Shown here one piece after another: positions 14,430 to 36,948 of a stretch of 64,000 nucleotides of DNA. Every line of letters begins with the position of its first letter. Position 1 is the stretch's first letter. Made by a program: the position numbers and the translations under genes. The notes beneath the pieces were generated by a model that searched no databases, was not told the DNA's origin, and was given only the letters and a program-made list of their open reading frames with translations. Origin of the DNA: a virus (Duplodnaviria > Caudoviricetes); IMG/VR virus record IMGVR_UViG_3300036770_008730; one strand, written 5' to 3'.

Positions 14430-16595
14430 ATGAAACCGGTTCTAATCGTAGAAAATTCAACTTCTTCTCTTCTCAGAGAGAATAATAGTGGCAGAAAAGA
14501 TTATGTGTTAGGTGGTACTTTTACAGAGTTTGGTGTTAAAAACCGTAACGAAAGAGTATATACAGCAGATAAATTTCTTCCAGCATTAGATGAACTTAAT
14601 GAGAGAATGAAAACGCTTGGTGCAGTTTACGGAGAATTCGATCATCCAGATGTTTTTGATACATCTTTATCAAGAGCATCACACGTTATCACAAAGGCAG
14701 AATACTTAAAAGAATCCAATAAAGTTACTGGTGAAATCAGACTACTTAGTACATATTGGGGTAAAGAAGCTAAGTCTTTGGTAGATGATGGATGTCCTGT
14801 CTTCGTATCTTCAAGAGCGGCTGGTGTTACAGAGTCTGATGGTTCTGTTTCTCTAAAAAAATTGTTCACATATGACATCGTTGCTGACCCAGGTTTTGCT
14901 TCTGCAAAAATGAGTGTTAAAAGTCTTAACGAGTCACTTGGATACAACCCAAAATCTAACTTTAGGATATATGAAATGTCCGATGAGTCCAAAATAAATG
15001 AACTATTCAATATGAATAAAGATGAATTTGTAACAAAAAAACAATTAACTGATTACTCTAAATATTTAGTTAATGAATTAGCTTCTACAAAGAAAGAAGT
15101 TAAGAGTGCAATTTCAAAAGGGAATATGAATCCTAAGAAATTGGAGCAGTTACTTGAATACTACGAAGAATTAAATAAGACAAACGGTCAAGTTGTTAAA
15201 TACTTAGACTATTTGGCTGAGAAAGTACAAGTAATGGTAAATGAAAACAAGTCTTTAAAAGCGACTACTGATAAACTTATTAAACACAATGATTATTTAG
15301 CAGAGAATTTAGAAAAAGCGGTAAACTATTCTGAATACTTAGCAGAAAATCTTGACAAAAACATTGAGTATTCTGAATACTTAGCAGAAAACTTAGATAG
15401 AAATATTTCTTATTCTGAGTATATCGCTGAAAATTTAGATAAAAACATTTCTTATTCTGAATACTTAGCAGAAAACTTAGATAAGAATATTGCTTACTCT
15501 GAGTATATCGCAGAAAACTTAGATAAGAATATCGCTTATTCTGAGTATATCGCAGAAAACTTAGACAAAAACATTGGATATTCTGAATATTTAGCTGAGC
15601 ATGTTGACAATTCAATTGCTTATTCTGAATATTTAGCTGAGCATGTTGAAGGTAACATCGCTTACTCTGAATACATTGCTGAACATTTAGATGATAACAT
15701 TGCTTATTCTGAGTATATCGCAGAAAATCTTGATAAATCAATTTCTTATCAGTCACTAATTACTGAAAAATTAAATGGTACAAGATTAAACGAAAATAAT
15801 GATCATGACGCTTTACCTGGAGTAAATGTTGTTGGTATTGAAAATGTTGAAGATGCTGACAATGATGATAATTGTGGACCAGTTAAAAATAATGATGGAG
15901 ACGATGATGATGCTGACTTAGCTGGTATCAGTCATGGTAATCCAGAAAATAAATGGAATAAAGAAAATAATGATGGAGACGGTGATGCTGATGGAGATGC
16001 TGATGCTGATGCTGATGGAGACGGAGCTTATGGACATGATGGTGCACATAACAACGCTCACTTAGAAGGTAACTCTGATTCTGAATTATCAAAATCTATT
16101 AATAAATTAATTGAAGAAGCTAAAAAACGTAAAGTTTCTGAAACAACTGACTTGAATTTCTTAAAGTTCTTAAACAAGTCACAAGTTGATAGCTTTTATG
16201 CACTTACAGAGAGTGAACAAGAAACTGTTAAACTTCACATAAACGAAAGAAGTTATTTCACACAAAAAGAAGTATTGTCTCTAATTGCAGAAGCTTTGTC
16301 TACAAAGAATGAATCTATCGAAGAAAGAGTAATCAGATTGATGCCTGAAAACATTAAGCCAATCTGGAATCAGTTAAATGAGTCTTCTAAAAAATCAGTG
16401 CTTTCACAAGCTAGATTATATCCAGAAGATGTATTAAAAACTGAAAATCAAGTTGAACATTTCTGGTTAACCAGAAATCTCAAAAAAAATGAGTCTGTAA
16501 CTAAAAAGTTAGTAGCACACGAAAGTTTAATACAAGAAGATAAACTTTCAGATAAAGATGTGAAAGCTATTATGGAAAGATTCAAAACAATTTAA
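14430..16595 (+). CDS. gp21: Prohead protease (T4 gp21-like) fused to a scaffold-like coiled-coil region
   Basis: GVKNRNERVY, YGEFDHP, VFVSSRAAG, TYDIVADPGF protease motifs; followed by 14-aa YSEYLAENLDKNIx repeats. Confidence 0.85.
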   Translation: MKPVLIVENSTSSLLRENNSGRKDYVLGGTFTEFGVKNRNERVYTADKFLPALDELNERMKTLGAVYGEFDHPDVFDTSLSRASHVITKAEYLKESNKVTGEIRLLSTYWGKEAKSLVDDGCPVFVSSRAAGVTESDGSVSLKKLFTYDIVADPGFASAKMSVKSLNESLGYNPKSNFRIYEMSDESKINELFNMNKDEFVTKKQLTDYSKYLVNELASTKKEVKSAISKGNMNPKKLEQLLEYYEELNKTNGQVVKYLDYLAEKVQVMVNENKSLKATTDKLIKHNDYLAENLEKAVNYSEYLAENLDKNIEYSEYLAENLDRNISYSEYIAENLDKNISYSEYLAENLDKNIAYSEYIAENLDKNIAYSEYIAENLDKNIGYSEYLAEHVDNSIAYSEYLAEHVEGNIAYSEYIAEHLDDNIAYSEYIAENLDKSISYQSLITEKLNGTRLNENNDHDALPGVNVVGIENVEDADNDDNCGPVKNNDGDDDDADLAGISHGNPENKWNKENNDGDGDADGDADADADGDGAYGHDGAHNNAHLEGNSDSELSKSINKLIEEAKKRKVSETTDLNFLKFLNKSQVDSFYALTESEQETVKLHINERSYFTQKEVLSLIAEALSTKNESIEERVIRLMPENIKPIWNQLNESSKKSVLSQARLYPEDVLKTENQVEHFWLTRNLKKNESVTKKLVAHESLIQEDKLSDKDVKAIMERFKTI
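15290..15760 (+). repeat. 42-bp coding tandem repeat (14 aa, two heptads): 10 YSEY units plus degenerate flanks
   Basis: TATTCTGA(A/G)TA(C/T)(T/A)T..GC.GAAAA..T.GA.AA.AA.AT. units read directly. Confidence 0.9.
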
Positions 16596-16599
16596 TCTA

Positions 16600-16647
16600 T
16601 AAAAAATCCACCTTAGTAAAAATAAGACTTTCAGGTGATAATATATA
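16600..16647 (+). promoter_or_regulatory. Head-gene promoter: TAAAAAATCCACC-N5-AAAAATA-N15-AATATATA
   Basis: Matches the element upstream of the protease gene. Confidence 0.65.
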
Positions 16648-16673
16648 GATAACAAAAAAAAATAAAAAACAAT

Positions 16674-18368
16674 ATGTCACACATTAGAATAGACAAACAA
16701 AAAGCAGTTAAGAAATGGGCTCCAGTGTTGGAGAACATGGGTGTAACTGGTGAGAGAGTTGACTGGATGGCTGAATACGCTGAGTTCCACTCAATTAATG
16801 AAAATGCATACGTAAACGCTTCTAACGTAGCGGGTATGGGTGCTGTTTTTAATCCAACTGTAGGTACATTAGCTGGTAGCCCAACATTAGGTGGAGCACT
16901 TGCTGGTTCTGGAGATGTAGGTCAAAACTTACTTCCTGTAGCTATGAAAATTGCAGCTCAAACAATCGGTTTAGATTTAGTAGCTGTAAAACCTTCTCCA
17001 GGTCCAAAAATTGACTTACTTTATATCGATTTCCGTTATGACGATACTCGTGAAGGTAACTTAGATGAGAGACCACAAGTTTTCAAATTTAATCAAACTA
17101 CTTGGTTATCTGCTATTCAAGCAGCAATCAGAGCTGATTTAACTGTTGCTGGTGGTGCTCCTGCTGCTATTAGCGAATCAACTGGTGGTTTATCAAACGG
17201 TAGAGTATGGTATAATATCAATGATGGTAGTGTAACTTATACTGATCCAGGTTCTGGTTCAAAAGCTAACTTAGTTGAGTTCTTAGGTTTCTCTCGTATT
17301 GATGGTTATCCAATGTTCAGAGCTTACAGACAAAATAATACAGCTCATACAGCTACTAACCCAGCTGGTGGTTCTACATTATGGTCATTTGATGCTACTA
17401 GAAATACATTCAATGCAACACAGTCAATGACTGATCAAATCGTATTAATCGCTGGTGTTACTGCTTCGGGTGGTGCTGTTGAATTAGTATCTGCTCTTGA
17501 AGATCATATCCCAGGTTTCTCTGCAAACTGGACATCTGCATCTTCTGGAAGTGCTGCTGGTTCTTATCCAATGTCTCGTCAAGATGATGATGATACATAT
17601 GCAGGTGTTATTGGTCCTAAGATTTCTTCTAAAACTATCGCAGTTGGTACTATTGAAGTATCTTCAGCTTTAAGAAGAACTGAAATCGAAGATATCAAAG
17701 CTAACACAGGTATGGATATCGTTCAAAAAATGGAATCTATCTTAGTTAATGAATTATCTCAAACAATCTCTAAGCAAATTGTTGCTAAGATTTTTGAAAT
17801 GGGTGCGTTAAACAGATCTACTGCTCCTTTAAGAAGTGGTGCATCTATCTTTGACTTAGATACAAATTATGCATATGGTGCTTCTAGTCCGGGTGGTGAA
17901 ACTACACACGCGGTTCAACGTAAGTTAATCACTAAGATTGCTCACGCTTCTAACTATATCGCAACTGAAGGTCGTGTTGGTCCTGCTCAATACCTTATCA
18001 CAAACGGGGGTCTTGCAGCTGCTTTATCTGATATTGCTGGTTATACAATTAACCCTTTAAAATCTAAAATGAATACACAAGGTCAACTTTACCCAGTTGG
18101 TTCAATCGGTGATATTTCAATTTATGTTGACCCATATATGAAGTACAACGATAACAGAATCGTTTTAGGTCGTAAAAATAATCCTGACCAACCAGGTATC
18201 ATTTTCGTTCCTTACTTAATGGCTCAGTCTATTTCGGTTATCTCTGAAGCTACATTCGCTCCAAGAATGTTGTTAAGAAGCCGTTACGCTGTAGCAGAAG
18301 TAGGTTGGTTCCCACAAAAACAGTTCATGCAAATCAATGTAACTGATGGACAAGGATTTCTTAACTAA
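16674..18368 (+). CDS. gp23: Major capsid protein (T4 gp23-like)
   Basis: KWAPVLE, AQTIGLDLVAVKP, LVNELSQTISK, IYVDPY, PGIIFVPY, APRMLLRSRYA motifs; high-expression codon use; strong terminator. Confidence 0.9.
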   Translation: MSHIRIDKQKAVKKWAPVLENMGVTGERVDWMAEYAEFHSINENAYVNASNVAGMGAVFNPTVGTLAGSPTLGGALAGSGDVGQNLLPVAMKIAAQTIGLDLVAVKPSPGPKIDLLYIDFRYDDTREGNLDERPQVFKFNQTTWLSAIQAAIRADLTVAGGAPAAISESTGGLSNGRVWYNINDGSVTYTDPGSGSKANLVEFLGFSRIDGYPMFRAYRQNNTAHTATNPAGGSTLWSFDATRNTFNATQSMTDQIVLIAGVTASGGAVELVSALEDHIPGFSANWTSASSGSAAGSYPMSRQDDDDTYAGVIGPKISSKTIAVGTIEVSSALRRTEIEDIKANTGMDIVQKMESILVNELSQTISKQIVAKIFEMGALNRSTAPLRSGASIFDLDTNYAYGASSPGGETTHAVQRKLITKIAHASNYIATEGRVGPAQYLITNGGLAAALSDIAGYTINPLKSKMNTQGQLYPVGSIGDISIYVDPYMKYNDNRIVLGRKNNPDQPGIIFVPYLMAQSISVISEATFAPRMLLRSRYAVAEVGWFPQKQFMQINVTDGQGFLN

Positions 18369-18435: not shown

Positions 18436-18852
18436 ATGAAGTATATCAAATATTTTGAAGGTAAAAAAGATAAATTTCCTAATCTTAAAAAGATTGAAAA
18501 GGATGAATTTGTAATATATGTAGGTGGTGATGCTAAATCTAATGACTATCTCACCTTCAATATGGCTAATGATGATGATATTTGGTTACATGCTATGGGT
18601 CTTCCAGGAAGTCATGTTGTTATCAAAATTAAAAGTTCCCAGAATATACAAGAAAAAACTTTACCTACAGATGTAGTCTTAAGATTTGCAGCTGAGTTGG
18701 CTAAAAAACACAGTAAAGCGCCTAAAGATCAACCCTGTGATGTTAGATGGTGCCAAAGAAAGTTTGTCTATAAAACACCAAATATGAATACAGGTGAAGT
18801 TGGAATAGAAAAGCAAATAGAAATGGATCCTACCAAAAAGATTACAATTTAA
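18436..18852 (+). CDS. Stand-alone NFACT RNA-binding (NFACT-R/DUF814) domain protein
   Basis: IYVGGDAKSNDYLT..DDIWLHAMGLPGSHVVIK..AAELA motif of the RqcH/FbpA C-terminal domain. Confidence 0.8.
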   Translation: MKYIKYFEGKKDKFPNLKKIEKDEFVIYVGGDAKSNDYLTFNMANDDDIWLHAMGLPGSHVVIKIKSSQNIQEKTLPTDVVLRFAAELAKKHSKAPKDQPCDVRWCQRKFVYKTPNMNTGEVGIEKQIEMDPTKKITI

Positions 18853-18871
18853 TTTAATATATACTATTATT

Positions 18872-20212
18872 ATGGCTGAAATTAAACCCATCTTCACAGA
18901 AGAATTACAAAAAATTCTAAAAGAATTAGAATCAGAAAATAACTATGTTGCTTTTGAGTTGATGTGGATGTCTGAACCAGATTCTAAATTTCATAACGGA
19001 TTAAGAATATCAAAAGTAGATGTTTCTAAGCAGGATTATTGCTTTGATGTTACTATTGATGGTAAAACACATCCAATGAAAATTGGAAAGTTTATAAGAT
19101 ACTTTTTAGCTAATATTATAAAGGATAATGAGGCTGTTGAATTTTCAAAACTTTATAATAATCTTAAAAAAGGTGAAAAGATACAATCCGGAACTCCTAT
19201 TACTATTGATAAGTTTTCTTACAATCCAAGAGATGTTAAAGCAACTTTTCTTTCTTTGGTTACAAAAACTTATCCTCATGGACATGAAGAAGAAGTATTA
19301 CAATTTTTACCGGGACTTAAAAAAGATCAATTTGGTAACTACTATAAAATAATAGGTAATATACAACCTCAAACTATGTTTACCTCGCATTTAGACACCG
19401 CAGATAGACAGCAAAAAGTTACAAAACTTTTTTCTATGGTTGAAGATGGTGAAGAATATATTTATACTGATGAAAGTACTATATTAGGCGCTGATGATAA
19501 GTCTGGTGTTGTGGTGATGTTATATATGATGACATATAATATACCAGGTCTTTATTATTTCTTTATTGGTGAAGAAAGAGGTGGAATCGGTTCTAATGCA
19601 TTGGCTTCTATTTTTGACCAAATTGATTATTTGAAGAATGTCAAAAGATGTATATCTTTTGATAGAAGAAACTATCACTCTGTTATCACAAGTCAATTAG
19701 GAAGAACTTGTTGTTCTAATGAGTTTGGAAATGCACTTTGTGATGAATATAATAGAAATGGATTAAGTTTATCTTTAGATAATACAGGTATTTACACAGA
19801 TTCTGCATCTTTTATGGATGATATTAGAGAATGTACTAATATATCTGTTGGTTATTTTAATGAACATACTGGAAAAGAATATCAAAATATAACTTACTTA
19901 AAGAATCTTTGTGAAGCTTCTGTTAAGGTTAATTGGAATTCTTTGCCTTCTGTTAGAAAGGCTGGATTAAATGAGGAAGTTATGAAAAAACACAGATTGC
20001 TTATCCAAGATATAAAAAAATCTGTTTTTGACTTAGAAACAAAAATAGTTGGTGAAGAAGGTAGAGTGTTTATCAGAGTTGATTTAGATGAGACTGACGT
20101 TGACGCTATTTCCAATGGCTTAAACATGGTTGATAGTATTCTTACTAAACATAAAATTAACAACAATGATGTAGTATTTACCAATACTTACATGAAAATA
20201 GAATTAAGATAA
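18872..20212 (+). CDS. Zinc aminopeptidase-like protein (M28/M20 clan MH)
   Basis: SHLDT, LGADDKSG, GEERG, SFDR, NEHT metal and catalytic motifs. Confidence 0.75.
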   Translation: MAEIKPIFTEELQKILKELESENNYVAFELMWMSEPDSKFHNGLRISKVDVSKQDYCFDVTIDGKTHPMKIGKFIRYFLANIIKDNEAVEFSKLYNNLKKGEKIQSGTPITIDKFSYNPRDVKATFLSLVTKTYPHGHEEEVLQFLPGLKKDQFGNYYKIIGNIQPQTMFTSHLDTADRQQKVTKLFSMVEDGEEYIYTDESTILGADDKSGVVVMLYMMTYNIPGLYYFFIGEERGGIGSNALASIFDQIDYLKNVKRCISFDRRNYHSVITSQLGRTCCSNEFGNALCDEYNRNGLSLSLDNTGIYTDSASFMDDIRECTNISVGYFNEHTGKEYQNITYLKNLCEASVKVNWNSLPSVRKAGLNEEVMKKHRLLIQDIKKSVFDLETKIVGEEGRVFIRVDLDETDVDAISNGLNMVDSILTKHKINNNDVVFTNTYMKIELR

Positions 20213-20213
20213 T

Positions 20214-20684
20214 ATGAATCTAAAAAAGTTTAATCAATTTGAAAAATACGAAAGTCCTTGGGATGAAGAAGATGAGTCATATTATAACGATGATCAATAT
20301 CTTTTTGGAAGACCATATCATTCAAATAAAGACAAAGGCAAATCTGAAGAAGAAGAGGAGGAAGATGAGTATGAAGATATAGATGATGATCAGAATGAGG
20401 ATATTCAACACTTGATGGATTTATTGAGAACCTATTTTGAAAACCAAGGTGTAGAAGTAGATATAGAAAATAAAGGATTAGATATCACAATATCAACTTA
20501 TCTTAATAAAGTAGAGAAATTAAAAAATATCATTAAAGTTTTTAACATAGTTAAAAAAGTTAAAAAAGATATTTTACCACAATATGAATCTGAGTTTGAA
20601 CTATGGGAAACAAAGGATAAAAGTCCTGTGCTTTATTTTAGTTTTTACTATGAAGGTGATTTCGATGATGAAAAACCATTCTAA
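20214..20684 (+). CDS. Acidic hypothetical protein with capsid-targeting-like N-terminus
   Basis: MNLKKFNQFEKYES start; poly-E/D tract. Confidence 0.55.
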   Translation: MNLKKFNQFEKYESPWDEEDESYYNDDQYLFGRPYHSNKDKGKSEEEEEEDEYEDIDDDQNEDIQHLMDLLRTYFENQGVEVDIENKGLDITISTYLNKVEKLKNIIKVFNIVKKVKKDILPQYESEFELWETKDKSPVLYFSFYYEGDFDDEKPF

Positions 20685-20718
20685 ACTTTTCTTAATTTTT
20701 TAATATTATATATACTTT

Positions 20719-21094
20719 GGGGAAGTGATAGAATAGATTCGCAGAGTGAGATCAATTATGCAGACATCGGTTGGTAAAATATCCGATTAATAAATTAGGT
20801 TACATCTGTCTTAAATGGCAAAACAAATGAAGTAGGAACCCGTGAAGATTTAGTAGCGGCTCTACAAAACAACCTGTTCTTGGTAGAAGAACTAGAGACA
20901 GCTTAACAAAGCATCTCTAAAAAATTCTCCAACTGAATCACAACAGTTCATAAAATAGTGAAACCTGAGTTGTTAGAATGGCGGGTAATTCAACTAACTA
21001 TTTTGTGAGTTTAGAAAAACTTTCTAAGTCTGTGAATGAATAGTTTATTTTAACTGAGGAAGACACCAGGGGCGGTTCCTGGTCTTCTCCACCA
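20719..21094 (+). ncRNA. ssrA: tmRNA (phage-encoded)
   Basis: 5' GGGGAAG pairs with 3' CTTCTCC-ACCA including G3:U; T-arm CCAGG-GGCGGTT-CCTGG; GCAGAC/GTCTGT helix; tag frame TAAAT-GGC...GCT-TAA at 20817-20906. Confidence 0.9.
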
Positions 21095-21098
21095 CATT

Positions 21099-21124
21099 AA
21101 AAGTCCACTTTGGTGGACTTTTTT
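21099..21124 (+). terminator. Intrinsic terminator after tmRNA
   Basis: AAAAGTCCAC-TTTG-GTGGACTTTTTT. Confidence 0.85.
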
Positions 21125-21145
21125 AGTTTAAAACATATAAATTAA

Positions 21146-21628
21146 ATGATAGATAAATTTGACGGTAAATACCGATTCTTAAGTAACTTTTATCCCTGTA
21201 AAATAGAACATCAGGGAATCACTTATCCAAGTGTGGAACATTATTATGTTGCAATGAAAGTCAATGATGAACAACTTATTAATGGTAAATATTACACTCC
21301 TGGTGATTTTAGAGAAATGATAAGTAGAGTAAAAGAAGCTGCCTTAGTTAAAAAAATTGGAAATAAAATTAAATTAAGATCTGACTGGGATAATAAAAAG
21401 TTAGATGTAATGAATTGGGCAATTAGAGAAAAATTCAAAGATGAGAATCTGAAGGAATTGTTACTTGGTACCGGTGATCAGGAACTTATTGAGGGAAATT
21501 TTTGGAAGGACTTTTTCTGGGGAGTTTGTAACGGTAGGGGCCAAAATCATTTAGGTAAAATCTTAATGATAGTTAGAGATGAGATAAGAGGAATCAAAAA
21601 GACTGGATTGGAAGAGTTTCTTAAATAG
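21146..21628 (+). CDS. NADAR (YbiA-like) family protein
   Basis: FLSNFYP..YPSVEHYY..LIEGNFWKDFFWG..GQNHLGKILM motifs. Confidence 0.85.
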   Translation: MIDKFDGKYRFLSNFYPCKIEHQGITYPSVEHYYVAMKVNDEQLINGKYYTPGDFREMISRVKEAALVKKIGNKIKLRSDWDNKKLDVMNWAIREKFKDENLKELLLGTGDQELIEGNFWKDFFWGVCNGRGQNHLGKILMIVRDEIRGIKKTGLEEFLK

Positions 21629-34528: not shown

Positions 34529-34813
34529 ATGGCAACAATCACAAAAAAGAAGACACAGTCTAAAGCTGACGAAATACTCTCTAAGCCTTATCGATTGATA
34601 CTTCACAATGATGATTATAATACCTTTGATTGGGTAATCACTTGTCTTATGAAGGTTTGTAACCATGAGTTCGAACAGGCCTCACAATGTGCACATATTG
34701 TCCATTATAAAGGCAAATGTGATGTGAAGTATGGAGACTTAGAAATCATTTCTGAAATGAAGAATAAACTTGCTAGTGCTGGTCTTAGTGTTACTATGGA
34801 AGTAAACAGTTAA
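34529..34813 (+). CDS. clpS: ATP-dependent Clp protease adaptor ClpS
   Basis: LILHNDDYNTFDWV..L..AHIVHYKGKCDVKYG. Confidence 0.85.
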   Translation: MATITKKKTQSKADEILSKPYRLILHNDDYNTFDWVITCLMKVCNHEFEQASQCAHIVHYKGKCDVKYGDLEIISEMKNKLASAGLSVTMEVNS

Positions 34814-36948
34814 ATGTTTTTACCAAACCAATCAATGTTTCTTGAGTTTGGATTTTTCCTTTGATTCTGTTTTCTCAATCTTAATACTTGTCCATAATCT
34901 AGTGATTCAACATGATCCATCTGATTAAGACAATTATTTACGTAACTTACAAAGTCTTTTGGTAAAAATTTATTAAACCACTCTTCCACCATCTCTTTAT
35001 ATTCATATTTTTGAATAATTGAAGTCATGTTGACTACGGTCATTACGGTGTCATCATGTCCAACATCGGCAGCATATCTTATGTTACCAGAGGATGTTAT
35101 GTGTTTAACAAATGTGGTTATCTCTCTTATGTTCTCTTCATTTGTTATTATAATGCTTTTTGATTGTAGAAGACCTTGATAATCTTTGACTAACAGGTTT
35201 TTATTTTCCCCTACTTTAAGACCCATTTTTTCCTCGGTTGAGTCAATTCTGTGTTTGTATCTAACAAACACAGAGGAACCATAGTTGTTTCTTCCTTCAA
35301 AAACATGTGGTAGTTCAGCAAAAAGAGCATTTCCATAGTTGTTTAACTCGACAACGACTTTTACATTTTCAGGATTTAGATATTCAAATACTATCATATA
35401 AAGTAATTCAGCAAGCTGTTTAACCGAAACCAAATTACTTCTGTAAATGCCTATCTGTTCTAATCTAAAGAAATCAACTATAGAAGTATATGATAATTTT
35501 TGAATTTCTATTAATTCAGTTGGTTTTGGAGAAATCTTAAAAATGTTTATAACAGAGTAATCTTGACCTAATCCCTCGGATATATCGACCGAAATAACTA
35601 CTTTGTAATCTTTTCTCCTAAGAGGTATGAATATCTCATCATCATCAATCCATTTTAATTCGTTATAACTGAACTTAAGTCTTGAATCAAATTCTGGTAT
35701 TTCTTCAAATAAAAAATTCTTTTTACCCTTTAATAATTCATCAATTATTGACTCACTTAATAATGATTTACTTGAATTGATAAATCTTAATCCATATTCT
35801 TGATTAAAGGCATCTTCTCCTCCTATATCTTTAATTGCTTCTTCTTTCCAAGTGGTCGTCTCCGCAATCATTCTTATAGGAACCTCATGTCCTTTTTTGT
35901 CAATGAATGTCATAGATTTAACCTCTTCATCCGAACACATCTCATTATTATAAACATAGATTATATCTTTTTGTATATCAATATTGTATATCATCTCAAC
36001 TTTTGTTTTACCTTCCCATCTTTCTTTCATCAGTTGTAGAATGTCTTCTTTTGTTACTCCATGTTCATATAATTTATGATTATTTAATCTTATGTAAGTT
36101 AGGAATCTACCTGGTACTTGATACCAGTATACCCTCATTGGTTTATAGTTATTTTTTTGAGGATCACCATCAGGCCTTTCAGCATCGGTTAGTAATCTAT
36201 GAAATAAATTCATACCATTTGGGGTTGATGTGATAATAATCTTAGAGTTTTGAACAGCTGATACAGTCGGAAATGCTGCCGTATAGTATGGTTCTATGAT
36301 ATTAGATGGGATGTGTGCAAACTCATCTAAATAAAGAACATCAATGGTAAAACCAATTGCTGGTGTTTTAGTTCTTGCTGATGTTTTTATTCTACATCCA
36401 TTTTCAAATGTTAACGACTTTTGATTCCAGGTTTTTATACCAGGTTTGAGAAAGAAAGGAAGTAGTGAGTAGATTGACTTTATTTTATCTACAATTTCTA
36501 TTGCTGTATCACCCTTATTTGCTACAATCATTATGTTCTTATCATTGTTAAATAAGATGGTATGTAACATGAAAATTGATGATGATATAGTTTTACCAAC
36601 CTGTCTTGACGCCATCAAGATATTAAATCTACTATTCATAAAATTATCAAGTATCTGTTTCTGATACTCTCTTAGTTTGATATTATTAATAGATCCATCT
36701 TCTGTTTTAACTTTACAATACTTCTCTGTGAAATAATGAACATCAAGTGCACATCTAACATATTCTTGTTGTTCATCTGGTGTCATTTTAAATGTAACAC
36801 CTGATCTTCTTAGACCGACTTCACTTTTTAGCCAAGGATTTTGAAATTTCTTTACAACAACACCATCATTTATCTTGTCTGTTGCCTCATCTACTAATTT
36901 AGTAGTGAAAATCATTTGTTTTTCTATGGGTTGTTTACCAAAGGACAT
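34810..36948 (-). CDS. gp17: Terminase large subunit (T4 gp17-like)
   Basis: LREYQ, ASRQVGKT (Walker A), LYLDEFA (Walker B), ITSTPNG, VISVDISEG, HDDTVM nuclease motifs. Confidence 0.9.
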   Translation of the reverse strand: MSFGKQPIEKQMIFTTKLVDEATDKINDGVVVKKFQNPWLKSEVGLRRSGVTFKMTPDEQQEYVRCALDVHYFTEKYCKVKTEDGSINNIKLREYQKQILDNFMNSRFNILMASRQVGKTISSSIFMLHTILFNNDKNIMIVANKGDTAIEIVDKIKSIYSLLPFFLKPGIKTWNQKSLTFENGCRIKTSARTKTPAIGFTIDVLYLDEFAHIPSNIIEPYYTAAFPTVSAVQNSKIIITSTPNGMNLFHRLLTDAERPDGDPQKNNYKPMRVYWYQVPGRFLTYIRLNNHKLYEHGVTKEDILQLMKERWEGKTKVEMIYNIDIQKDIIYVYNNEMCSDEEVKSMTFIDKKGHEVPIRMIAETTTWKEEAIKDIGGEDAFNQEYGLRFINSSKSLLSESIIDELLKGKKNFLFEEIPEFDSRLKFSYNELKWIDDDEIFIPLRRKDYKVVISVDISEGLGQDYSVINIFKISPKPTELIEIQKLSYTSIVDFFRLEQIGIYRSNLVSVKQLAELLYMIVFEYLNPENVKVVVELNNYGNALFAELPHVFEGRNNYGSSVFVRYKHRIDSTEEKMGLKVGENKNLLVKDYQGLLQSKSIIITNEENIREITTFVKHITSSGNIRYAADVGHDDTVMTVVNMTSIIQKYEYKEMVEEWFNKFLPKDFVSYVNNCLNQMDHVESLDYGQVLRLRKQNQRKNPNSRNIDWFGKNI

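Follow-up and report, generated by a model that had tools for sequence, protein, structure and literature searches.

The window, that is the whole stretch of 64,000 nucleotides of viral DNA that was analysed, very probably contains a genuine tmRNA gene at positions 20719-21094. The original prediction of a tmRNA at this place is borne out by 52 homologues with covariation and by a call of ARAGORN under relaxed settings. Our preferred reading, held with moderate confidence and drawn from comparison of sequences, is that a Mahaphage-type megaphage here carries a functional tmRNA of very divergent sequence, and that its tag is a degradation signal of altered specificity.

Detection, relatives and structure of the gene

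The gene is housed in a 461-nt gap (20685-21145) between two open reading frames of the plus strand. ARAGORN with default settings made no tmRNA call on the window, nor on two relatives, and the window gave no match to Rfam at gathering thresholds. With permissive settings the match to the Rfam tmRNA model (RF00023) was confined to the last 26 nt (21069-21094) and scored 9.6 bits, for a cut-off of 47 bits. ARAGORN or Infernal had been proposed at the outset as a check on the tag: default ARAGORN and Rfam were blank, and ARAGORN called the gene only at a threshold of 70%, then with exactly the tag that had been read, GKTNEVGTREDLVAALQNNLFLVEELETA. Since the default detectors are silent and the Rfam score is weak, the identification as a tmRNA needed independent support.

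This support was sought in relatives. A blastn search against GenBank phages retrieved two unannotated genomes, LR756502 (642 kb) and LR745206 (635 kb), at 73-75% identity. Al-Shayeb et al. (2020) assigned genomes of more than 634 kb to the Mahaphage clade, with Bacteroidetes as predicted hosts, and LR756502 and LR745206 presumably belong to their Mahaphage-clade genomes. The family was gathered by pattern scans of IMG/VR and JGI metagenomes, then by nhmmer. It comprises 73 full-length copies (52 distinct sequences, 361-386 nt), carried by viral contigs whose length reaches 492 kb. Almost identical DNA was met in metagenomes from the subsurface, the probable source, as well as in others from freshwater, lagoon and sediment. 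The features of the gene in the window are as follows.

20719-21094, plus strand: tmRNA gene, 376 nt including the encoded CCA (relaxed ARAGORN, 52 homologues, covariation)
20719-20725, plus strand: 5' strand of the acceptor stem, GGGGAAG, pairing with 21084-21090 and containing G3 of G3:U70
20738-20765, plus strand: 5' strand of helix 2, with its partner at 21028-21060 (RNAalifold)
20766-20803, plus strand: pseudoknot PK1, hairpin AUCGG/CCGAU, whose loop GUNA pairs with UNAC
20804-20816, plus strand: single-stranded spacer that contains UAAAU, the resume determinant (U-5 at 20812, A-4 at 20813)
20817-20906, plus strand: tag reading frame, 29 sense codons (GGC...GCT) at 20817-20903 and TAA at 20904-20906
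20832-20865, plus strand: hairpin with covariation at codons 6-17 of the tag frame, whose 12-nt loop, GAAGAUUUAGUA, is invariant
20876-20892, plus strand: another hairpin with covariation, at codons 21-26 of the tag frame
20894-20918, plus strand: helix 5 (H5), around the stop codon
20931-20961, plus strand: PK2, with S1 97% and S2 99% paired and compensatory changes
20967-20995, plus strand: PK3-like hairpin, weakly supported (69-85% paired, poorly aligned)
21005-21027, plus strand: PK4, with S1 93% paired and double changes at 5/5 pairs
21065-21083, plus strand: T arm, with a 6-bp stem and a non-canonical 7-nt loop, GGCGGUU (21071-21077)
21084-21094, plus strand: 3' strand of the acceptor stem, CUUCUCC, followed by the discriminator A and CCA
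21099-21122, plus strand: intrinsic terminator hairpin and T run, beginning 5 nt past the tmRNA 3' end

Each helix was evaluated by its pairing in the 52 distinct sequences, compared with the pairing obtained when the 3' partner was slid by one or two columns. The proposed helices are 90-100% paired versus 3-72% in these register-shifted controls, and most of them show compensatory double changes (n = 52). Covariation backs the acceptor stem, helix 2, both stems of PK1, PK2, the first stem of PK4, H5 and the T stem. The acceptor stem is 97.8% paired (n = 52), with compensatory changes at 5:68 and 6:67; the alanine identity pair G3:U70 is present in 51 of the 52 sequences and the discriminator A is unpaired. 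A long helix 2 replaces the anticodon arm, and its segments H2a, H2b and H2c are 91-100% paired versus 25-70% with a slid partner. In PK1, S1 is 100% paired and S2 90%, with CG/UA/AU switches; S2 of PK4 (UUA/UAA) is conserved without covariation. Both hairpins inside the tag frame covary as well, the first being 93.6% paired with double changes at 6/9 pairs, the second 90.9% with double changes at 3/4 pairs. The stop codon is enclosed in all 52 sequences by a hairpin of at least 3 bp whose stem sequences differ, which is the canonical H5 arrangement.

The T arm lies directly 5' of the acceptor 3' strand and its stem is 98% paired, with four pair types. The universal T loop is UUCRANY. The consensus of the family is GGCAGUA, with GGCGGUU in the window, and UUCRA is never found (n = 52); C56 and R57 are retained and positions 54, 55 and 58 are altered. 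We attribute the failure of the standard tools to this loop, which is GGCAGUA and never UUCRANY. Because of the 9.6 bits against 47, the blank result of default ARAGORN and the T loop GGCAGUA, the lineage is a divergent tmRNA outside the current Rfam and ARAGORN models, not a member by those models. The 3' end is also peculiar: the window is the sole member of the 52 to encode CCA (21092-21094), the others having ACA (41/52) or ACT. As CCA is not encoded in the other 51 members, the family depends on a CCA-adding enzyme.

An aberrant T loop, a CCA absent in 51/52 and detectors that fail would also be expected of a gene that is no longer an active tmRNA, either a decaying copy or a tRNA-like decoy titrating host SmpB. 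A role of SmpB-titrating decoy was proposed for the TLD-only RNA of mycobacteriophage DS6A (PMC4131195). We find this explanation highly improbable for the present family, in which compensatory change has kept every domain in 52 lineages, the open frame, H5 and the pseudoknots among them. It also agrees poorly with the presence of a partner. Three near-complete relatives were examined for partners, namely LR756502, LR745206 and a 98%-complete 483-kb IMG/VR genome, and each encodes a full-length SmpB equivalog with a basic C-terminal tail; no other tmRNA (RF00023) was found in these three genomes.

Metatranscriptomes give a weak hint that the tmRNA is expressed. Contigs from four metatranscriptome libraries (four studies) map to 20730-21075, several of them at 100% identity, and other metatranscriptome contigs correspond to other members of the family, with the same resume context. 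The RNA contigs do not cover the flanking protein genes (20214-20684 and 21146-21628), a missing cover that is not counted as evidence. In two RNA libraries contigs pass into Illumina adapter sequence at 21069, immediately ahead of the T loop, and at 21075, within it; the cause may be the end of a fragment, or a modified base that stopped reverse transcription.

The surroundings of the gene were also considered. The region 14430-18368 is a T4-type head module, which includes a Gp23-type major capsid protein (PF07068, E = 6e-28) and a 721-aa protein with a weak match to prohead protease S77 (E = 3e-5, below the cut-off). Beside the major capsid gene, from 18436 to 21628, are found in this order NFACT-R, an M28/M20-like peptidase (446 aa), ORF156, the tmRNA and NADAR (PF08719, E = 8e-26). 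The NFACT-R protein stands alone (18436-18852; PF05670, E = 3.5e-14). ORF156 (20214-20684) has no Pfam match, and the ESM Atlas returns viral hypothetical proteins only. The order major capsid protein, NFACT-R, M28-like peptidase, ORF156, tmRNA and NADAR is conserved in most of 72 related loci; an order shared among related phages is no proof of a functional link.

Resume site and tag peptide

The resume codon had been predicted to be the GGC that follows UAAAU. In E. coli the resume codon lies 12 nt past PK1, SmpB contacts U-5, and preference for particular bases is strongest at -4 and +1 (PMC3022190). The family has U-5 in 51/52 sequences and both A-4 and G+1 in 52/52, and the spacer from PK1 measures 12-13 nt. 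As far as sequence can tell, this context matches the published E. coli determinants, and the invariant or near-invariant bases and the distance from PK1 support the choice of GGC. The frame that follows UAAAU in the window translates to GKTNEVGTREDLVAALQNNLFLVEELETA; a tag of 29 aa without an LAA end, as first read, is upheld by the sequence and by ARAGORN at 70%.

The frame behaves as a translated one. In each of the 52 sequences it stays open for 27-29 codons from the resume position, and the +1 and +2 frames meet stops after 2-6 codons, at non-conserved places. Two members carry a 6-nt in-frame deletion. The pooled pN/pS is 0.49 in the tag frame versus 0.71 and 0.89 in the shifted frames. 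In 39/52 sequences there is no upstream ATG, GTG or TTG in frame, none is conserved, and nine sequences have none throughout the frame. With start codons missing or non-conserved, ordinary initiation cannot explain the frame. We are confident, on this comparative evidence, that the tag is as read, GKTNEVGTREDLVAALQNNLFLVEELETA.

The original prediction had itself raised the possibility of another resume codon, further downstream or in another frame, that would yield a short or canonical tag. The silence of default ARAGORN and the hairpin directly after codon 5, unusual in an mRNA-like region, would both suit such a displacement. An ending of LAA type was sought in all frames of the mRNA-like region and none was found, and frames +1 and +2 close after 2-6 codons. 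The combination of U-5/A-4/G+1 with a distance of 12-13 nt from PK1 is unique to 20817, and any downstream in-frame start would still finish in -ETA. We give a displaced resume codon hardly any credence.

In the tag family a conserved core, G[KN][TV]NEVGTREDLVAAL, precedes a variable half whose end is [ED][LP]xx[VA]. The 16 N-terminal residues are conserved and the C-terminal halves diverge into types A and B, the frame being open in both. The last residue is Val in 29 of the 52 tags (GTN, all four codons), Ala in 22 (GCN, all four codons) and Ser in one. Position -5 is Leu or Pro, encoded by seven codons, and position -6 is Glu or Asp. A Val/Ala end in 51/52 across all synonymous codons places the C-terminus under selection at the level of the peptide. 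As judged from these sequences, a C-terminus held at Val/Ala, with -5 and -6 constrained, argues that it is read by something. The net charge is -4 in the window, with a median of -4 and a range of -1 to -5 in the family. The ending ETA of the window is among the most polar of the family (3/52).

Codons 8/9 covary with codons 14/15 by base pairing and the amino-acid changes follow; the loop that encodes EDLV is invariant even at third codon positions. It follows from the covarying hairpins and the invariant EDLV loop that part of the conservation of the peptide is at the RNA level. The conservation of the loop GAAGAUUUAGUA is inseparable from selection on the peptide EDLV. This loop, identical at all 12 nt in 52/52 sequences, could be an RNA ligand site or a tertiary contact.

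The same observations can be pushed further, to a frame that is translated but whose peptide is irrelevant, the core then being two hairpins and a ligand-binding loop. Covariation in both hairpins, the changes at codons 8, 9, 14 and 15 that track base pairing, and the invariance of GAAGAUUUAGUA including its third codon positions are what such a purely RNA-level conservation would produce. It would not produce the synonymous variety seen at the unpaired codons 1, 3, 4, 7, 11 and 19 and at the last codon, nor a frame kept open through the divergent C-terminal halves of types A and B and through an in-frame indel. We regard this explanation as improbable, and we retain a tag selected in part as a peptide.

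Two motifs of the tag had been singled out in the original prediction, and neither was retained. The internal LVAA had been seen as a buried degron-like motif. As a vestigial degron it is rejected, since it is present in only 19/52 tags and sits in a covarying RNA hairpin. The 14 residues that follow it hold 4/6 of the acidic residues of the window tag, with a net charge of -4. LVE had been noted as fitting an (I/L)xE site of prohead-protease type; such sites are found in 22/52 tags versus 42% of shuffled tags, and this candidate was also discarded.

Fate of tagged proteins and the Clp genes of the relatives

A degron of ClpXP type ends in (A)-[LM]-A-A, in a tag of about 8-14 aa; the tag of the window ends in -LETA, at 29 aa. 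None of the 52 tags ends in LAA, the nearest being one -QAA. Two outcomes had been put forward for the tagged product: that it escapes degradation, or that it is sent to a different protease, possibly of the phage. The second has fared better, on circumstantial grounds provided by the Clp genes, and the first appears less likely in view of the Val/Ala end and of the constraint at -5 and -6.

In our preferred reading, Ala-tmRNA would enter stalled ribosomes together with phage SmpB during infection. Translation would resume at GGC (20817), Ala plus GKTNEVGTREDLVAALQNNLFLVEELETA would be appended to the nascent protein, and the ribosome would be freed at the UAA inside H5. The tag would most likely work as a C-terminal degradation signal, with a specificity unlike that of the host-type -[LM]AA read by ClpX. 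Its most plausible reader would be an AAA+ protease of ClpA/ClpC type, possibly the phage's own. Judging from the tag sequences, the tag probably directs rescued proteins to some protease that is not the usual ClpXP of the host. ClpXP still degrades an -AAV variant of the E. coli tag, only more slowly, and ClpA reads ssrA tags too.

The Clp genes were examined in the three near-complete relatives. Each of them encodes two to three ClpP, a ClpS and a two-ring Clp AAA+ protein of 704-719 aa. In the 483-kb IMG/VR relative the latter lies at L198:253-2364 (704 aa), with equivalents in LR756502 and LR745206. It lacks a recognisable Clp_N domain, its middle region is short and UVR-like, D2 contains a VGF loop, and it scores under both the ClpA and ClpB equivalog cut-offs. 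The VGF loop occupies what we take to be the place of the ClpP-docking loop of ClpA/ClpC. This AAA+ protein could possibly be partnered with the phage ClpP and ClpS. No Lon, Tsp/S41, ClpX zinc finger or SspB was found in the three genomes. When SmpB, ClpP and Clp AAA+ of the relatives were searched by tblastn against the 64-kb window, no match was obtained. The window contains one gene of this group:

34529-34813, plus strand: ClpS adaptor gene (Pfam PF02617, E = 2e-19)

This ClpS is possibly part of a phage Clp system. Its gene adjoins the T4-type large terminase gene (34810-36948, minus strand).

Delivery to a different protease is a better reading than escape, because the relatives encode SmpB, ClpP paralogues, ClpS and a ClpA/C-like unfoldase, and no other tmRNA. 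Escape would mean that the tag serves rescue only: the ribosomes are freed, the long acidic tag is no degron and the products persist. A lytic phage may need ribosomes above quality control, and in M. pneumoniae viability requires the ribosome recycling of tmRNA, not proteolysis (PMC8403727). The missing LAA ending, the polar -ETA of the window and the net charge of -4 point the same way. A meaningless tail would drift or shorten, yet the Val/Ala end is kept through all synonymous codons with -5 and -6 constrained, and the length has stayed at 27-29 aa in 52 lineages. Rescue without degradation is in our view unlikely.

A phage-encoded Clp as the reader of the tag is an attractive possibility, which we put forward tentatively. 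An extended version, in which megaphages run a private, orthogonal quality-control circuit consisting of their own SmpB, a tmRNA with an altered T loop, a phage degron and a phage ClpA/C-like protein with ClpP, and not host ClpXP, is conceivable and speculative. The phage-specific degron of such a circuit might, still speculatively, combine the conserved GKTNEVGTREDLVAAL core with the [ED][LP]xx[VA] end. Were this private circuit true, the recycling of ribosomes and the salvage of amino acids would be under phage control, without dependence on the host.

To our knowledge, phage tmRNAs are known but essentially unstudied. Here at least 52 megaphage tmRNAs are brought together as a family that standard detectors miss. 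Surveys made with default ARAGORN, the method of Al-Shayeb et al. (2020), probably undercount such tmRNAs, even where SmpB is visible. The peptide-selected, non-host-type tag and the phage Clp set make a testable case for a virus-owned pathway of trans-translation and proteolysis. The tag might also supply an orthogonal degradation tag, comparable to the mf-Lon system in synthetic biology, and the non-canonical T loop offers a natural experiment on the demands that SmpB, EF-Tu and the ribosome make on the tRNA-like domain.

Comparison with known tmRNAs and tags

The family shares with canonical tmRNA (SsrA, RF00023) the acceptor stem with G3:U70, the discriminator A, the T arm and the long helix 2. 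It also shares a PK1 placed 12-13 nt before the resume codon, the U-5/A-4/G+1 context, a frame without start codon, a stop inside H5, downstream pseudoknots (PK2 and the first stem of PK4 being well supported, PK3 weakly) and, as seen in the three near-complete relatives, a dedicated SmpB in the same genome. It differs from canonical tmRNA by its T loop, GGCAGUA instead of UUCRANY, and by its Rfam score of 9.6 versus 47 bits.

For comparison, tags were measured from five FCB-group genomes, chosen because their SmpB is closest to the phage SmpB (42-53% identity). They are 9 aa long and read GNNNYALAA, GESNYAMAA, GESTYAMAA and ADYGYMAAA. The first three agree with the earlier statement that Bacteroidota tags are short and end in [LM]AA. 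By comparison the window has 29 aa and two extra covarying hairpins in the frame, and the family ends in [ED][LP]xx[VA] instead of Y-A-[LM]-A-A. A search with the nhmmer profile of the family found no similarity in the five FCB tmRNAs, nor in those of phages Bxz1 and G.

The mycobacteriophage Bxz1 group and Bacillus phage G are known to carry tmRNAs (Hudson et al. 2014, PMC4131195). The Bxz1 tag is acidic, has 25 aa and ends in -EEAAALV; that of phage G has 13 aa and ends in -ELQVA. Like the family, these are phage-encoded tmRNAs with tags departing from -LAA, and several family members end in -VEEPALV or -PELV, in a manner close to Bxz1. Unlike the family, Bxz1 (74 bits) and phage G (68 bits) pass Rfam and default ARAGORN. 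They belong to a different phage lineage, with hosts in Actinomycetota and Bacillota as opposed to the Bacteroidota predicted for the family, and unlike them the family has its tmRNA co-occurring with phage SmpB, ClpP, ClpS and Clp AAA+.

A likeness in length is found in Mollicutes, where long ssrA tags are read by Lon (27 aa in M. pneumoniae; AANKNEENTNEVPTFMLNAGQANYAFA in Mesoplasma florum). The original prediction was right that tags usually have about 10 aa, but tags of 25-27 aa are documented in Bxz1 and Mollicutes. Mollicute and phage tags are similar in size (about 27-29 aa), and specificity has been switched away from ClpX in Mollicutes. The phage KTNEVGT (20817-20834) shares TNEV.T with the ...NTNEVPT... 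of Mesoplasma florum, a common motif that may be due to chance. Mollicute tags have an aromatic NYAFA end, whereas the phage tags are acidic, end in V/A and have no aromatics near the end; unlike Mollicutes, the three near-complete phage relatives have no Lon. Bxz1, phage G and Mollicutes thus provide precedents for this tag, unusual as it is; the novelty lies in a large lineage missed by detectors, and in its Clp/SmpB context.
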